This document shows, piece after piece, positions 1,553 through 5,966 of a stretch of DNA of 51,381 nucleotides (position 1 is its first letter; every line of letters starts with the position of its first letter). Origin of the DNA: an uncultured Candidatus Saccharibacteria bacterium (GTDB lineage: Bacteria; Patescibacteriota; Minisyncoccia; Phycocordibacterales; UBA9973); contig CAYIEM010000003.1 in NCBI GenBank assembly GCA_964362545.1, positions 1 through 51,381 of the forward strand, given 5' to 3'. Below the pieces are notes generated by a model. It worked only from the letters and a program-made list of their open reading frames with translations. It did not search any database and was not told the origin of the DNA. Position numbers and translations under genes: made by a program.

Positions 1553-2869
1553 TTACGGAGCCAGTCGATTCATGTCTCTTGGGAAAAGCGTCGCTTCTTT
1601 CACATTTGCCAGACCGATAATTTTCTGAGTCAATCTTTCAAGACCCATGCCAAATCCACCTTCTGAGGGCATTCCATATTTAAAAGCCTGAAAAAAATAT
1701 TTGAATCCATCCGAGTCAGGGTTGCCGCCGGCCATTTCTCGAAGTTGCTTGGTAAGAATGTCATAGCGATGTTCTCGCATGCTACCGGTGGCTATTTCAA
1801 CCCCGCGGAAAAGCAAGTCCGCGCGTTCAGCAATTTCCGGATTGTCATCTTTAAATTTATGGTAAAACTTCGCTCCTTCCTTCGGCCAATCAGTCACAAA
1901 AACCGCTTCGCTTCCTAGATTTTCTTTGGCGTATTCGCATATCCATTTCTCCTCATCCGGACGCAAGTCTTTTTCACCTATCGTCTGTTGTTCATTGGCA
2001 GCTGAGTATTTCTGGTGAATCTCCTCCATGGTGATCTGTGGAATCTCCTTGGCTAAAATCGGTTTAGTAGCTTCCCACATTGCGAGTTCTTTCTCGCAAA
2101 TTTTCCAAACATTCTCTATTACAAAGTTCATAAAGCCACTCATCAAATGAAGCAAGTCCTGAAGTTCAATGAAACCCATCTCGACGTCAATCGTCTGAAA
2201 CTCGGTCATGTGACGAGGAGTAGCGCTAGGCTCAGCTCGATAGGTAGAGCCGATTTCAAACACCCTTTCATACACCCCCACCAGTATCTGTTTGTAAAAT
2301 TGAGCGCTCTGGGCTAAAGTGGCTTCTTTGCCAAAATAATCCAGCTTGAAAACTTCAGCGCCCCCCTCAGTCGCGCCCGGAAGAAGTTTAGGCGAACTAA
2401 ACTCTGTAAAATCTTGACTTTTGAGATATTCTCGTACTTGATTTCGAACTTCGGCTTGGATTTTAAATACCGCCCTTTCACGTAAATTTCTAAGTCCTAT
2501 CACTCGATAATCAAACAGAGTGTCCAAATTGTCCGATTTGTGCCCCAAAGGTTTATCTATTTCTATCGGAGAAGCTTCAGTGACCGACAACACCACTGTA
2601 ATTTTAGGATTATGAATTTCCACTCCTTCGGGAGCGCGTGGCTCTTCCGTGACAGTGCCCACTATTTCCAACACTGTACCTATCTGCATTCCTTCCAATT
2701 TTTCAATTTCACTTTTATCCTCAATCAAAATCTGCATGACTCCTCCGCGATCTCGCAACACTAAGAACACCATCCCGCCAAGCGGACGTTTCTTGTGAAG
2801 CCATCCCTGCATCAACACTTCCTCTCCTTTGTGGTCTTTCACTTCTCTAGATAAAATTCTGTTTTTCAT
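1553..2869 (-). CDS. aspS: Aspartate-tRNA(Asp/Asn) ligase, short non-discriminating (archaeal-type) form
   Basis: OB-fold LRDRGG, GATEGGAEVF, LAQSAQFYKQ, YRAEPS.T.RH, motif 3 GGFGMGLER...LFPRD; start moved to ATG 2869. Confidence 0.93.
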   Translation of the reverse strand: MKNRILSREVKDHKGEEVLMQGWLHKKRPLGGMVFLVLRDRGGVMQILIEDKSEIEKLEGMQIGTVLEIVGTVTEEPRAPEGVEIHNPKITVVLSVTEASPIEIDKPLGHKSDNLDTLFDYRVIGLRNLRERAVFKIQAEVRNQVREYLKSQDFTEFSSPKLLPGATEGGAEVFKLDYFGKEATLAQSAQFYKQILVGVYERVFEIGSTYRAEPSATPRHMTEFQTIDVEMGFIELQDLLHLMSGFMNFVIENVWKICEKELAMWEATKPILAKEIPQITMEEIHQKYSAANEQQTIGEKDLRPDEEKWICEYAKENLGSEAVFVTDWPKEGAKFYHKFKDDNPEIAERADLLFRGVEIATGSMREHRYDILTKQLREMAGGNPDSDGFKYFFQAFKYGMPSEGGFGMGLERLTQKIIGLANVKEATLFPRDMNRLAP

Positions 2870-3001
2870 AGTTTTTTTATAGAAGTTTTTGGAAATAGCT
2901 TTTCGCAGGGGTTGCGAGGCTGACGAGCCGAGCATTTCAGAATTTTTTAAGCTTCAAAAAATTCGTACCGAAGAAAAGTTAATTTCCAAAAACTTACTGG
3001 A

Positions 3002-3058
3002 GAAAACAAAAATCGCCTCTCCAAACTTACCTTGGTTGATAAATTTGCAGGGGCGATT
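3002..3058 (-). terminator. T-box intrinsic terminator
   Basis: AATCGCCCCT-GCAAATTT...AAGTTTGG-AGAGGCGATT followed by TTTGTTTT on the minus strand. Confidence 0.8.
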
Positions 3059-3250
3059 CTTGTCGAACCACGGTGCCACCCTACTTCTTGCCCGTCCGAA
3101 GCCTATGGCGTAGGCGGGTGCTTCATTTCAAACTTTAACGCAGTTTCTACGGAGGATTCTACTCGCCTTTCAGCTTTCTTCCCTCGCCTTGTCCCGCAGA
3201 AGCTTGAGCGAAAGCAGGACTCCCCAGTGTCAGCTGGTTCAAAGGCTATT
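3002..3250 (-). promoter_or_regulatory. T-box riboswitch leader upstream of aspS
   Basis: Minus strand AAGTAGGGTGGCACCGTGG (3086-3068) T-box motif, downstream CGCCCCT antiterminator partner, AGTA/GAA Stem II, AAACT-GCGTTAA-AGTTT Stem IIA, and an overlapping terminator. Confidence 0.85.
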
Positions 3251-3311
3251 GTTTAATAATAACACTGTAAACCTAAAAAGCAACAACCAGAAAGATATAC
3301 AGTGTTACCAT

Positions 3312-4031
3312 TTATTTAAATATATTTTTAACCGTTGCGTCCACTAAGATTCTCATTGTATCGTATATTTTAATTCCATTATTATTTTCAGGCATCAATA
3401 ATTGTAAATCAGTGCAAGCCAAGATAACATGTCTAACTTTGTTCTTGGCAAAATCCTTTATTACCTTCATCAATAACTCACGATCCTTATTGTCGTATCT
3501 AGTCGAAACCAGATTGTAGATTAGTTTACCAATTCTGGCCTGTTGTAAACCACTAGGGATAATCTGTTTAATTTTGCTCTGTTTTAAAGATTTCTCATAT
3601 AACTTGTTTCGGATAATTATTGAAGTAGCGATAATTCCAACTTTATCGATTTTTTGCTTATTAAGAAATCTAGATGTTTCTTCTAAGATAGATAAAACCG
3701 GAATCTTGACTGCATTTCTTATATCACCAATGAACACGTGTAAAGAATTGCATGGCAACACCAAAAAGTCGGCACCAGCCTTTTCTAAGTTTTTCGCAGC
3801 ATCAAGAAGATACGGCAAACACTTTTTCTCTCCGACACCTTCAGCAATAGCCTCTTTTTCAATATCAAACGGCAAAGCAATGCTGTTGATTAGAATTTGT
3901 GGGTAATTGGTCTTATTTAACTGTTTGCACGAAAAAATAAGCTCCAAATAAAATTCTGCTGTAGTCTCGGGTCCGAGACCACCAATTATTCCCACAGTTT
4001 TTATTTTGTCTTTATTCTCTGATATCATCAT
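3312..4031 (-). CDS. Asp/Glu racemase family amino acid racemase (RacX/YgeA-like)
   Basis: GIIGGLGPETT, PCNSLH and LACTDL two-cysteine catalytic motifs. Confidence 0.9.
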   Translation of the reverse strand: MMISENKDKIKTVGIIGGLGPETTAEFYLELIFSCKQLNKTNYPQILINSIALPFDIEKEAIAEGVGEKKCLPYLLDAAKNLEKAGADFLVLPCNSLHVFIGDIRNAVKIPVLSILEETSRFLNKQKIDKVGIIATSIIIRNKLYEKSLKQSKIKQIIPSGLQQARIGKLIYNLVSTRYDNKDRELLMKVIKDFAKNKVRHVILACTDLQLLMPENNNGIKIYDTMRILVDATVKNIFK

Positions 4032-4155: not shown

Positions 4156-4446
4156 TTAACTGACTTTGAGAAGTTTCAAGGCTCGTCGGAACCCTCCTTC
4201 TTTGTCTTGCATTTCACGGGATCCCCTGGTAACGGTCCCTACCCCTAAATGTAAATCTTCCGCTATGGCCTGATGGTGCTCTCTTTTGGCAAGACGCTTT
4301 ACTATTTGCCACCTGACGCCAATGTTGCCAAATTCACGTGGCGTCAGTATGTCTTCAATAAAATCACCTAGAAGTTCTTTATTTTTAGAGATTTTATAAA
4401 TTACCTCGATTATTTCTCTTTTATATTGTTCAGAATTATTTTTCAT
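4156..4446 (-). CDS. TrpR/YerC family transcriptional regulator
   Basis: DILTPREF.NIGVRWQIVK.L...HQAIAEDLHLGVGTVTRGS TrpR-type HTH; start moved to ATG 4446. Confidence 0.85.
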   Translation of the reverse strand: MKNNSEQYKREIIEVIYKISKNKELLGDFIEDILTPREFGNIGVRWQIVKRLAKREHHQAIAEDLHLGVGTVTRGSREMQDKEGGFRRALKLLKVS

Positions 4447-4513
4447 AATGATTATAGTATACCACAAATATCAGCACAGTGATATGTAGAGCTCTGATTA
4501 ATAAAATAATATC

Positions 4514-5008
4514 CTACTGTGAAATATCTCCTATTTGGGAATTTACTATTTCTTTATAATCTTTTGAGAACATTCCTATCGAGTAGGATCTATCACCTGC
4601 ATTAAATATAATTTTTTCGTTTTCAAAGATATTGAAATCCGCATATATTGGCAAATTAAAAATATTCCCAAAAGGTGGTACTCCCCCTCTTTGCACACCT
4701 TGGGTTATTTCAGATATTTCCATTTCTGTAGCAAGTCTGGTGTCCACAATACTAAAAACATTTTTGAGCTTCTTGGAATCGAATTTCTTGTCTCCAGAAA
4801 CACAAACCATTATAAATTTCTTGCTTTTGTCCGGCATTTTTGCCTTTACAATTAAGGCCTTCACTCCCTGCTTCAGTTGATATTCTGGCCTTTGCCGTGC
4901 TGCCTCTTCACTGGTCGTCACTGGAACATGTTCAAAAGTTTCAAACCAGAATTTTTTTTCAACAAGAATATCTTTGATTTTGTCGACAGTTGGATGATAG
5001 TTTGTCAT
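4514..5008 (-). CDS. YbaK/ProX family aminoacyl-tRNA editing protein
   Basis: H.PV.TSEEAA, VKALIVK, RLAT..E, GGVPPFG, FNAGDR motifs; start moved to ATG 5008. Confidence 0.88.
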   Translation of the reverse strand: MTNYHPTVDKIKDILVEKKFWFETFEHVPVTTSEEAARQRPEYQLKQGVKALIVKAKMPDKSKKFIMVCVSGDKKFDSKKLKNVFSIVDTRLATEMEISEITQGVQRGGVPPFGNIFNLPIYADFNIFENEKIIFNAGDRSYSIGMFSKDYKEIVNSQIGDISQ

Positions 5009-5015
5009 TGAGAAA

Positions 5016-5966
5016 TTAGTAAACTGAAACTCCAACTTTTTGGCGCACCTCTGCCATTTTTTGAGAAGCGACTTTTTTGGCTTTTTCTCCGCCTTCTTTT
5101 AAAATTGCCAACGCACGAGGAATATCTTTTTCAAATTCTTTCCTTTTTTCACGGAGTGGCGCGATGAATTTCTCCAAGTCTTCTATCAACATTTCTTTGA
5201 GCTCTTTATACTTCCCTGCTTTCTCTTCGTAAATTTTCTTTAATTCTTTTTCATCCCGTAAAAGTTTGTGAATGGAAAAAACATTTACAGGGGTTTCACC
5301 GCTGGAATCAGTCACAATACTCATCACGCACTTCTTGATTTCTTCATACTCCGCAAAAAGAGGAATGGTGTTCCCATAACTCTTACTCATTTTGCGTCCA
5401 TCCGTTCCTGGTACAACTGCCAAATCTTTTATAATCTTTGCTTCTGGCAACTTAAATGTTTCGCCGAAAATGTGGTTGAATTTTTCGGCCGTATCGCGAG
5501 TAATCTCTATGTGTTGTTTCTGATCTTGACCTACCGGAACAACATCAGGACTATAAAGTAAAATATCTGTGGCCATGAGCATTGGATAATTAAAAGTGCC
5601 GACATCTATTTCTTTGTTCTTCGCCTCAGCATCCTTAAAGGCATGAGCCCGCATCAGATATGGCATGGTCGTGATAGTATCGAATATCCAAGTGAGTTCA
5701 GTATGCTCAGAAATATCAGACTGCTTAAAAAATACTGCCTTTCTGGGATCCAAACCAATTGCCAGGAAATCCAAAAGAACTGCTATAATATTCCCACGCA
5801 TTATCTTAGGATCTTGCACGGACTTTAAAGCATGATAATCAGCTATCATCATGTAACACTGATACTCGTCCTGTAAATCCAACATTTGTTTCATCATGCC
5901 AAAATAATTGCCAATATGCGGTTTACCTGAAGGCTGAATACCTGACAGTAATACTTTTTTAGACAT
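5016..5966 (-). CDS. trpS: Tryptophan-tRNA ligase
   Basis: SGIQPSGKPHIGNY (HIGH), VPVGQDQKQH, KMSKS. Confidence 0.96.
   Translation of the reverse strand: MSKKVLLSGIQPSGKPHIGNYFGMMKQMLDLQDEYQCYMMIADYHALKSVQDPKIMRGNIIAVLLDFLAIGLDPRKAVFFKQSDISEHTELTWIFDTITTMPYLMRAHAFKDAEAKNKEIDVGTFNYPMLMATDILLYSPDVVPVGQDQKQHIEITRDTAEKFNHIFGETFKLPEAKIIKDLAVVPGTDGRKMSKSYGNTIPLFAEYEEIKKCVMSIVTDSSGETPVNVFSIHKLLRDEKELKKIYEEKAGKYKELKEMLIEDLEKFIAPLREKRKEFEKDIPRALAILKEGGEKAKKVASQKMAEVRQKVGVSVY

Follow-up and report, generated by a model that had tools for sequence, protein, structure and literature searches.

The 51,381-nt stretch of contig CAYIEM010000003.1 analysed here (the window) comes from an uncultured Candidatus Saccharibacteria bacterium, whose genome assembly (G000) amounts to 0.82 Mb in 46 contigs. 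On its minus strand the window carries an amino-acid racemase gene (4031-3312; TIGR00035 match, 160 bits), a putative T-box leader (3247-3003) and aspS (2869-1553), in this order. All coordinates given below for the leader are on this strand. The aspS gene (1553-2869) encodes an archaeal-type, non-discriminating-type aspartyl-tRNA synthetase (AspRS), and its product matched NF003483 (aspartate-tRNA(Asn) ligase) with 470.2 bits, the cut-off being 353. ATG 2869 is the likely start codon rather than the first ATG of the open reading frame (ORF) at 2935, because the NF003483 match begins at residue 23 of the long ORF and because the protein of the relative G015 begins at the matching residue. The spacer from the U-run of the leader to this start codon is thus 133 nt long (2870-3002). 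Our reading is that the leader is probably a tRNA-sensing T-box with an ultrashort-Stem-I decoding module, which would control aspS by transcription attenuation, and we give this a probability of about 0.85.

The elements listed in the preliminary description of this DNA were all found at their minus-strand places when the coordinates were checked. At the base of Stem I, GCC (3244-3246) pairs with GGC 3188-3186, and two more pairs are possible between UU 3243-3242 and AA 3190-3189, giving 3-5 bp in total; the 3' strand of this helix, AAGGC (3186-3190), was placed by folding and alignment. Inside it lies a kink-turn (K-turn)-like motif. Its 5' strand (3238-3243) consists of a UUU bulge, G A (3240-3239) and A, and its 3' strand is GGA (3221-3223), in which G3222 and A3221 stand opposite A3239 and G3240. 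The K-turn, like the S-turn of Stem II, was assigned by motif and not from a structure. The specifier hairpin CCAG-CUGACA-CUGG (3224-3237) has 4 bp and a 6-nt apical loop, with GAC at 3231-3229 and A3228 as the 3' purine. Between GGA and the closing AAGGC, folding places a further hairpin, GUCCUGC...GCGGGAC (3191-3220), with 7 bp and a 16-nt loop.

Stem II with its S-turn (3152-3185; with AAGAAAG in its 5' strand and GAGUAGAA in its 3' strand) aligned to the Stem II consensus of RF00230. The RF00230 alignment also gave a Stem IIA/B pseudoknot (3130-3151). The helix AAACU...AGUUU had earlier been labelled Stem IIA, but it is IIB (AAACU 3146-3142 with AGUUU 3134-3130); IIA consists of CGU 3151-3149 with GCG 3141-3139. 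AAACU of IIB sits within the IIA loop, and GCGUUA is an F-box-like sequence. The IIB strands vary in sequence among aspS leaders while their complementarity is maintained, as judged by a heuristic without a control. Stem III (3091-3118; CCCG...CGGG with an inner hairpin) appears in the minimum-energy fold. It has no counterpart in the leaders of G015, G012, G036, G040 and G027; L052 and L114 are among the leaders that do have it.

The T-box core GGGUGGCACCGUGG was identified by sequence at 3081-3068, and the longer T-box sequence AGUAGGGUGGCACCGUGG at 3085-3068 aligned to the RF00230 core at high posterior probability. The antiterminator (3047-3084) is composed of an A1 helix (GUAGGG/CCCUGC) and an A2 helix (GUGGUU/AAUCGC), in the latter of which a G-U pair stands where G-C is expected. 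Its 7-nt bulge is UGGCACC 3078-3072, with UGGC at 3078-3075. The antiterminator gave -14.3 kcal/mol alone with the bulge unpaired. A competing terminator hairpin (3011-3058) is followed by the U-run UUUUUGUUUU (3003-3012) and gave -23.3 kcal/mol alone and -34.6 kcal/mol when its flanks, A-rich and U-rich, were included. Bases 3058-3047 serve both as the 5' arm of this hairpin and as the 3' half of the antiterminator, and the two helices are mutually exclusive as they share them. The minimum-energy fold of the whole leader (-88.3 kcal/mol, z -2.73) includes the terminator, and 2 of 200 shuffled sequences were as stable.

Related leaders were collected by seeking AspRS relatives in 41 genomes and scanning their loci for the T-box core. 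Five further leaders were found before aspS-like genes, and each has a base helix of 3 bp, NNUGAN, a hairpin of 4 bp closing a 6-nt loop, and then GGA or UGA. A covariance model (R1) was derived from 7 sequences, for which the structure was drawn by hand. At E<=0.01, R1 had matches in 84 of the 151 genomes from the genus, and in 64 of the 113 of good quality; the genus count includes the unpublished genomes G075 and G146 and becomes 82/149 without them, and no other claim depends on these two. Across a phylum sample, R1 matched 46 of 151 genomes and 42 of 131 genera. From the 110 genus matches listed we examined 105, the omitted ones being three from unpublished genomes and the ileS and thrS leaders of G000. 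The leaders with an ileS/aspS look (86) were aligned to R1 to give alignment A2, and 23 loci were omitted (20 of thrS type plus L135, L137 and L138).

In alignment A2, 94.5% of cells were paired, compared with 77.7% in shuffles and 30-51% in slid-partner controls, two-sided changes occurred in 22 of 27 pairs, and none of 500 shuffles attained any of five measures, although these statistics are overstated, since the alignment follows the model to which it was fitted and the genomes are related to each other. Helix 1, at the base of Stem I, was 96.9% paired, with two-sided changes in 3/3 pairs. For the specifier hairpin (helix 2) the value was 97.3%, with two-sided changes in 4/4 pairs. The two helices of Stem II (3 and 4) were 93.2% and 89.6% paired and showed two-sided changes in 8/8 pairs. 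The antiterminator corresponds to helices 6 and 7. NNUGAN at the K-turn-like strand (UGAA 3241-3238 in the window) was conserved across the aligned leaders, and GGA or UGA occupied the K-turn 3' position in most insertion-free leaders.

A second model (R2), for which 53 leaders from named records were used and the leader of the window was left out, matched that leader with 64.6 bits (E 4.2e-14), and this was the sole match at E<=1 in both strands of the 51,381 nt. In the named records, all 40 matches of at least 68 bits carried Patescibacteria-type labels or no taxon, except two metagenome-assembled genomes labelled Bdellovibrionota and Nanoarchaeia. The Patescibacteria-type labels were Saccharibacteria, Paceibacteria, Parcubacteria, Nomurabacteria, Kaiserbacteria, Adlerbacteria, Taylorbacteria and Minisyncoccia, which agrees with the earlier remark that the lineage is an unusual one for T-boxes. 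No R1 match was found at Actinobacteria-labelled loci, all of which are among the 27 of 80 listed pattern matches without an R1 match. Domibacillus loci scored 24-28 bits over ~130-200 nt. The leader of the window is thus one member of a large, apparently undescribed family in the candidate phyla radiation (CPR).

Leader and gene are linked by the specifier codon. It was read as the three bases ahead of the last loop base in 82 leaders with a parsed loop (four rows, L067, L094, L107 and L118, were left out for alignment gaps), and the downstream genes were classed by protein clustering and NCBIfam, independently of the leaders. The commonest member of the family is the ileS leader (61 parsed copies), and its loop codon was AUC in 61/61. 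Before aspS the codon was GAC in 14 and AAC in 4 of 18 leaders, and three leaders at contig ends had AUC or GAC. A purine followed the codon in 82/82 (A in 76, G in 6), as in GAC-A 3231-3228 here, and loop positions 1-2 varied freely. Elsewhere in the phylum a valS leader had GUC, and thrS-type leaders had ACC in a 7-nt hairpin loop in 20/20, read by eye. The assignment of GAC 3231-3229 as the apical Asp specifier is upheld by these counts, and the loop is conserved among relatives on a hairpin that covaries in each of its four pairs.

Two leaders in the same genome follow this rule. RF00230 gave three other weak matches in G000. L001 (G000:C4:33353-33495; 40.6 bits) is a 143-nt ileS leader with GGG-ACCAUCAA-CCC (AUC) and UGGU, and L003 (G000:C12:5103-5263) is a thrS leader with GUGG-CUACCAA-CCAC (ACC); both terminate in a hairpin and U-run. 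The third, L004 (G000:C1:80578-80738; 20.6 bits), was rejected as a T-box: its core, GGUGGCAUCCUG, is imperfect, and neither a specifier hairpin nor an adjacent aminoacyl-tRNA synthetase gene was seen by eye.

The hairpin at 3220-3191 raises the question of a canonical T-box with a long Stem I, in which this hairpin would be the distal part and a second GAC-A (3194-3191, in GGGACAAGGC) the internal-loop specifier. The second GAC followed by A does lie just 5' of the closing AAGGC, and the RF00230 alignment reduced Stem I to a short helix with a large unaligned block at this place. Comparison with the G015 leader, whose AspRS is 85% identical, gives a different picture. Here, on the 3' side of GGA and before the base helix closes, the window has 32 extra bases made up of the 30-nt hairpin and AA; the other extras are Stem III and the longer post-terminator spacer. 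G015 and the other 17 aspS leaders that were parsed lack the Stem I insertion but retain the apical GAC/AAC loop. Furthermore, the second GAC is paired within the hairpin stem in the minimum-energy fold, 7 bp and a 16-nt loop are far under the size of a distal Stem I, and neither an AG-bulge nor a distal-loop T-loop pair was seen by eye. We therefore consider a long Stem I, proposed earlier as an alternative pairing, extremely improbable.

Given its absence from these relatives, hairpin 3220-3191 is a lineage-specific insertion and not a distal Stem I; the leader has no elbow-docking distal Stem I. The insertion is predicted to turn the K-turn into a three-way junction. In 13 ileS leaders a GC-rich hairpin was found at the same site, often with UUC replacing GGA. 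The K-turn elaborated to a three-way junction is known as a k-junction, as in thiamine pyrophosphate riboswitches. At the level of secondary-structure topology, on which alone the two were compared, the leader shares with it a third helix on the non-bulged strand beside the G-A pairs. An origin of the inserted hairpin as a high-copy repeat was rejected, as a regular-expression scan of G000 gave 14 hairpin-like matches (7 sites, both strands), none of them similar to the insert.

A match between the antiterminator bulge and the tRNA discriminator base was observed in the genus for Ile, Thr and Asn. All 61 ileS leaders had UGGU, and tRNA-Ile(GAU) of G000 has A73. The thrS leaders had UGGA, and tRNA-Thr(GGU) of G015 has U73. 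Among the aspS leaders, those with GAC had UGGC in 13 of 14 cases and those with AAC had UGGU (3) or UGGC (1), and tRNA-Asn(GUU) of G015 and G317 has G73. G73 is also expected in tRNA-Asp from its general identity rules. The earlier claim that UGGC fits G73 of tRNA-Asp/Asn consequently holds for its tRNA-Asn half in two related genomes, while the tRNA-Asp half could not be matched to a gene.

A tRNA-Asp(GUC) gene was not found in G000, G015, G012 or G317 with ARAGORN (default, introns and relaxed settings), with RF00005 on the four genomes, with an orphan T-arm scan of G000 or with pattern searches; the ligand and its G73 are thus assumed. The tRNA matches numbered 31 in G000, 43 in G015, 43 in G012 and 38 in G317. 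The last of these is a closed chromosome of 994,774 bp, in which all 38 tRNAs were typed and cover 19 amino acids without Asp. The tRNA-Asp gene could be non-canonical or interrupted. As a separate observation, G015 has a tRNA-Trp(CCA)-like gene (L232:36-135; G015:C4:35185-35283) with a 28-nt GC-rich hairpin beside the anticodon. It lies ~250 nt upstream of a normal tRNA-Trp, and its hairpin resembles the T-box Stem I inserts of L062 and L112.

These tRNA results bear on whether the leader senses tRNA-Asn alongside or in place of tRNA-Asp, with GAC read by GUU through a position-1 G-U wobble and UGGC fitting G73. The aspS product matches a family of Asp-tRNA(Asn) ligases, G000 contains gatB (374.7 bits, split across two contig ends), and a profile search of this genome found no asnS above its cut-off. 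AAC leaders moreover precede both AspRS types, and G73 was seen in tRNA-Asn of two relatives while tRNA-Asp was located in none of the four genomes. On the other hand, wobble reading would leave the relatives little reason to alternate GAC and AAC, and GAY codons require a tRNA-Asp. Sensing of tRNA-Asn by this leader is therefore, in our view, improbable.

The output of the leader was assessed in the family. In 100 of 102 assessable leaders, 8 or more of the final 13 antiterminator bases were found to pair into a hairpin with a U-run at its end; for three of the 105 the sequence downstream was too short for this assessment. Both exceptions, L112 and L135, showed a hairpin and U-run on inspection: the model match of L112 had ended early, and L135 is of a different type. 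The combination of an ultrashort Stem I with a terminator, proposed in the preliminary description as a hybrid architecture, is thereby borne out in the relatives, which keep the short hairpin as well. A Shine-Dalgarno-masking sequestrator, the class II feature, is missing, as the alternative helix ends at the U-run. With the U-run 133 nt ahead of ATG 2869, masking of the ribosome site is therefore not available as an output.

A different function was also weighed, in which the hairpin is not a terminator and the leader either affects translation or the stability of the RNA, or is a decaying relic after replacement of aspS. A simple scan does not call the terminator, known ultrashort-Stem-I T-boxes are translational in the available description (PMC7583486), and the leader occurs at 1 of the 68 closest AspRS homologue loci (L151). 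The spacer of ~130 nt after the U-run is also far longer than that of G015. Against this, the start codon is too distant for masking, the hairpin and U-run are almost always retained, all motifs are intact, the terminator is nearly the same as in the G012 and G015 leaders, and the independent model R2 gave 64.6 bits. A translational, stability-related or relic leader is accordingly highly improbable. The spacer (2870-3002) contains additional GC-rich hairpin-like stretches.

The history of the locus suggests an exchange of the coding sequence. An R1 search of the 68 closest AspRS homologue loci (L151-L218; 52-85% identity) found the leader upstream in one, L151, and co-inheritance of the leader with this type of aspS was rejected. 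Most of these homologues came from records labelled Saccharibacteria or Saccharimonadales, and the proteins from such records, 52-67% identical to the AspRS of the window, lack a T-box. The leader type stands before archaeal-type AspRS in G015, G081 and G027 and before a ~465-aa bacterial-type AspRS in G012, G156, G148, G077, G036 and G040. The terminator of the window is almost identical to that of the bacterial-type aspS leader of G012. The simplest reading of these sequence comparisons would be that a resident leader stayed in place while the aspS coding sequence behind it was exchanged. The bacterial-type enzymes (L035, L039, L052, L104, L025 and L032), ~465 aa long, matched a 590-position profile in two stretches and seem to lack the insertion domain of bacterial AspRS.

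In the T-box reading that we prefer, tRNA binding, charge sensing and termination are inferred from sequence. The leader pocket would pair with the GUC anticodon of tRNA-Asp. An uncharged tRNA would pair through its 3' end (expected to be G73-C-C-A) with UGGC of the 7-nt bulge and stabilise the antiterminator 3084-3047, so that RNA polymerase would continue into aspS. With charged tRNA, or with none, hairpin 3058-3011, which is more stable than the antiterminator, would form before the U-run and transcription would stop.

Several results weigh against this reading. RF00230, the family named in the preliminary description, did match the leader, but with 24.9 bits (E 0.0015 for 601 nt and 4.9e-4 for the genome), well under its gathering score of 93, at which the window had no match. 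The Rfam model presupposes a long Stem I. The insertion has an ambiguous register: R2 set the 3' strand of the specifier hairpin on CGGG in the insertion with one non-standard pair, whereas the thermodynamic fold uses the perfect CCAG/CUGG, and GAC is unpaired either way. The insertion also interrupts the continuity of the K-turn base helix. A simple consensus scan of 2850-3400 called no promoters and no terminators. The stem of the terminator hairpin has two mismatches, which is why the scan did not call it, and its upper part is A/U-rich. To these points are added the unmatched tRNA-Asp and the inflated covariation statistics described above. Finally, the argument on speed of elbow contact made in a review, in the text available (PMC7583486), argues against a transcriptional T-box with an ultrashort Stem I.

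This last point needs to be seen with the literature. In the accessible text of two papers, ultrashort-Stem-I T-boxes are tied to translational control in Actinobacteria (PMC7583486; PMC11297988), and transcriptional T-boxes generally need a long Stem I with an elbow-binding motif for quick tRNA capture before the terminator (PMC7583486, section 6.2). The contrast of long and ultrashort Stem I is repeated in the 2024 paper, as far as its available text goes (PMC11297988). According to the accessible part of a 2025 paper, the translational ileS T-box of M. tuberculosis works co-transcriptionally under kinetic control (PMC12647780), and a transcriptional ultrashort T-box is therefore less paradoxical. 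The TBDB class II model, in the available description, was applied to Actinobacteria and to class I matches with a truncated Stem I (PMC7778990). Our literature search for T-box with CPR, Patescibacteria, Saccharibacteria, Parcubacteria or Minisyncoccota found no paper pairing them; subscription papers and supplements, including the TBDB tables, were outside this search.

The closest known systems are the actinobacterial ileS T-boxes (structures 6UFG and 6UFM, cited in PMC7583486). As the available review text describes them, they share with the leader an apical specifier that has a purine after it and is carried by a short Stem I, a basal K-turn, an S-turn in Stem II, the IIA/B pseudoknot, the 7-nt UGGN bulge and the absence of an elbow-binding distal domain (PMC7583486). 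By the same description they mask the ribosome site, control ileS and occur in Actinobacteria, whereas the leader of the window has a terminator with a U-run, an Asp codon and a host in Patescibacteria. Unlike them, it also has a hairpin inserted at the K-turn. With the canonical transcriptional T-box (RF00230) it shares the T-box core, the antiterminator/terminator switch, Stem II, the F-box and a gene-matched specifier, but it is without a long Stem I, an internal specifier loop and a distal T-loop platform. By mechanism-defining features the leader would be classed as a T-box that lacks one defining feature of each class, the long Stem I of class I and the ribosome-site masking of class II. 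In Clostridium acetobutylicum, a T-box with an AAC specifier and a canonical long Stem I stands before a non-discriminating aspS/gatCAB operon. This arrangement resembles the present one in placing a dual-serving AspRS under a T-box, and AAC recurs in 4/18 of the relatives' aspS leaders; it differs in its long Stem I and in AAC, the window having GAC.

With a large, covariation-rich natural family in which a short decoding module is joined to a terminator, the kinetic argument can be put to a direct test. The family covers five or more tRNA specificities among bacteria whose genomes measure ~0.4 to 1.4 Mb, and its natural T-box scaffolds, very small at 85 to 140 nt, are usable for engineering. 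Annotation at the Rfam gathering score overlooks amino-acid-responsive regulation in CPR genomes, which are often presumed to be regulation-poor. Relatives key the same kind of enzyme to tRNA-Asp or tRNA-Asn depending on the species, and this alternation of GAC and AAC bears on how the two products of a non-discriminating AspRS are balanced without an asparaginyl-tRNA synthetase (AsnRS). We regard it as rather unlikely, although conceivable, that ultrashort-Stem-I T-boxes with terminators are the standard T-box of Patescibacteria (Ile, Asp, Asn, Thr, Val), some dropping Stem II or adding K-turn hairpins, with the Asp ligand perhaps unusual. If true, co-transcriptional tRNA sensing would have no need of an elbow contact.

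The family also includes smaller and divergent members. Five aspS leaders (L104 at G077:C12:46603-46687, L101, L106, L114 and L120) have no Stem II, and the shortest is 85 nt. They consist of an ultrashort Stem I (5- or 7-nt loop, mostly CUGACAA), a short linker, the T-box and a terminator. In the available text of the review, a truncated Stem I without Stem II hardly binds tRNA (PMC7583486). These leaders are thus even more minimal than that of the window. The thrS leaders (20 loci, L113-L139, and also L003) form a separate sub-type, in which the ACC hairpin lies in a multi-branch stem AGAGAUU...AAUCUAU and there is no AGUAGAA S-turn.

The racemase gene (P0002) was found by tblastn near aspS in none of the 17 other aspS loci searched. 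Upstream of it in the window lie two minus-strand ORFs, a weak TrpR-like one (4156-4467; 39.8 bits) and a YbaK/EbsC-like deacylase (4514-5035; 49.9 bits), each under its cut-off. In five ileS leaders of the family (L077, L078, L082, L096 and L110) a GC-rich hairpin was located inside the specifier loop itself, directly 5' of AUC.

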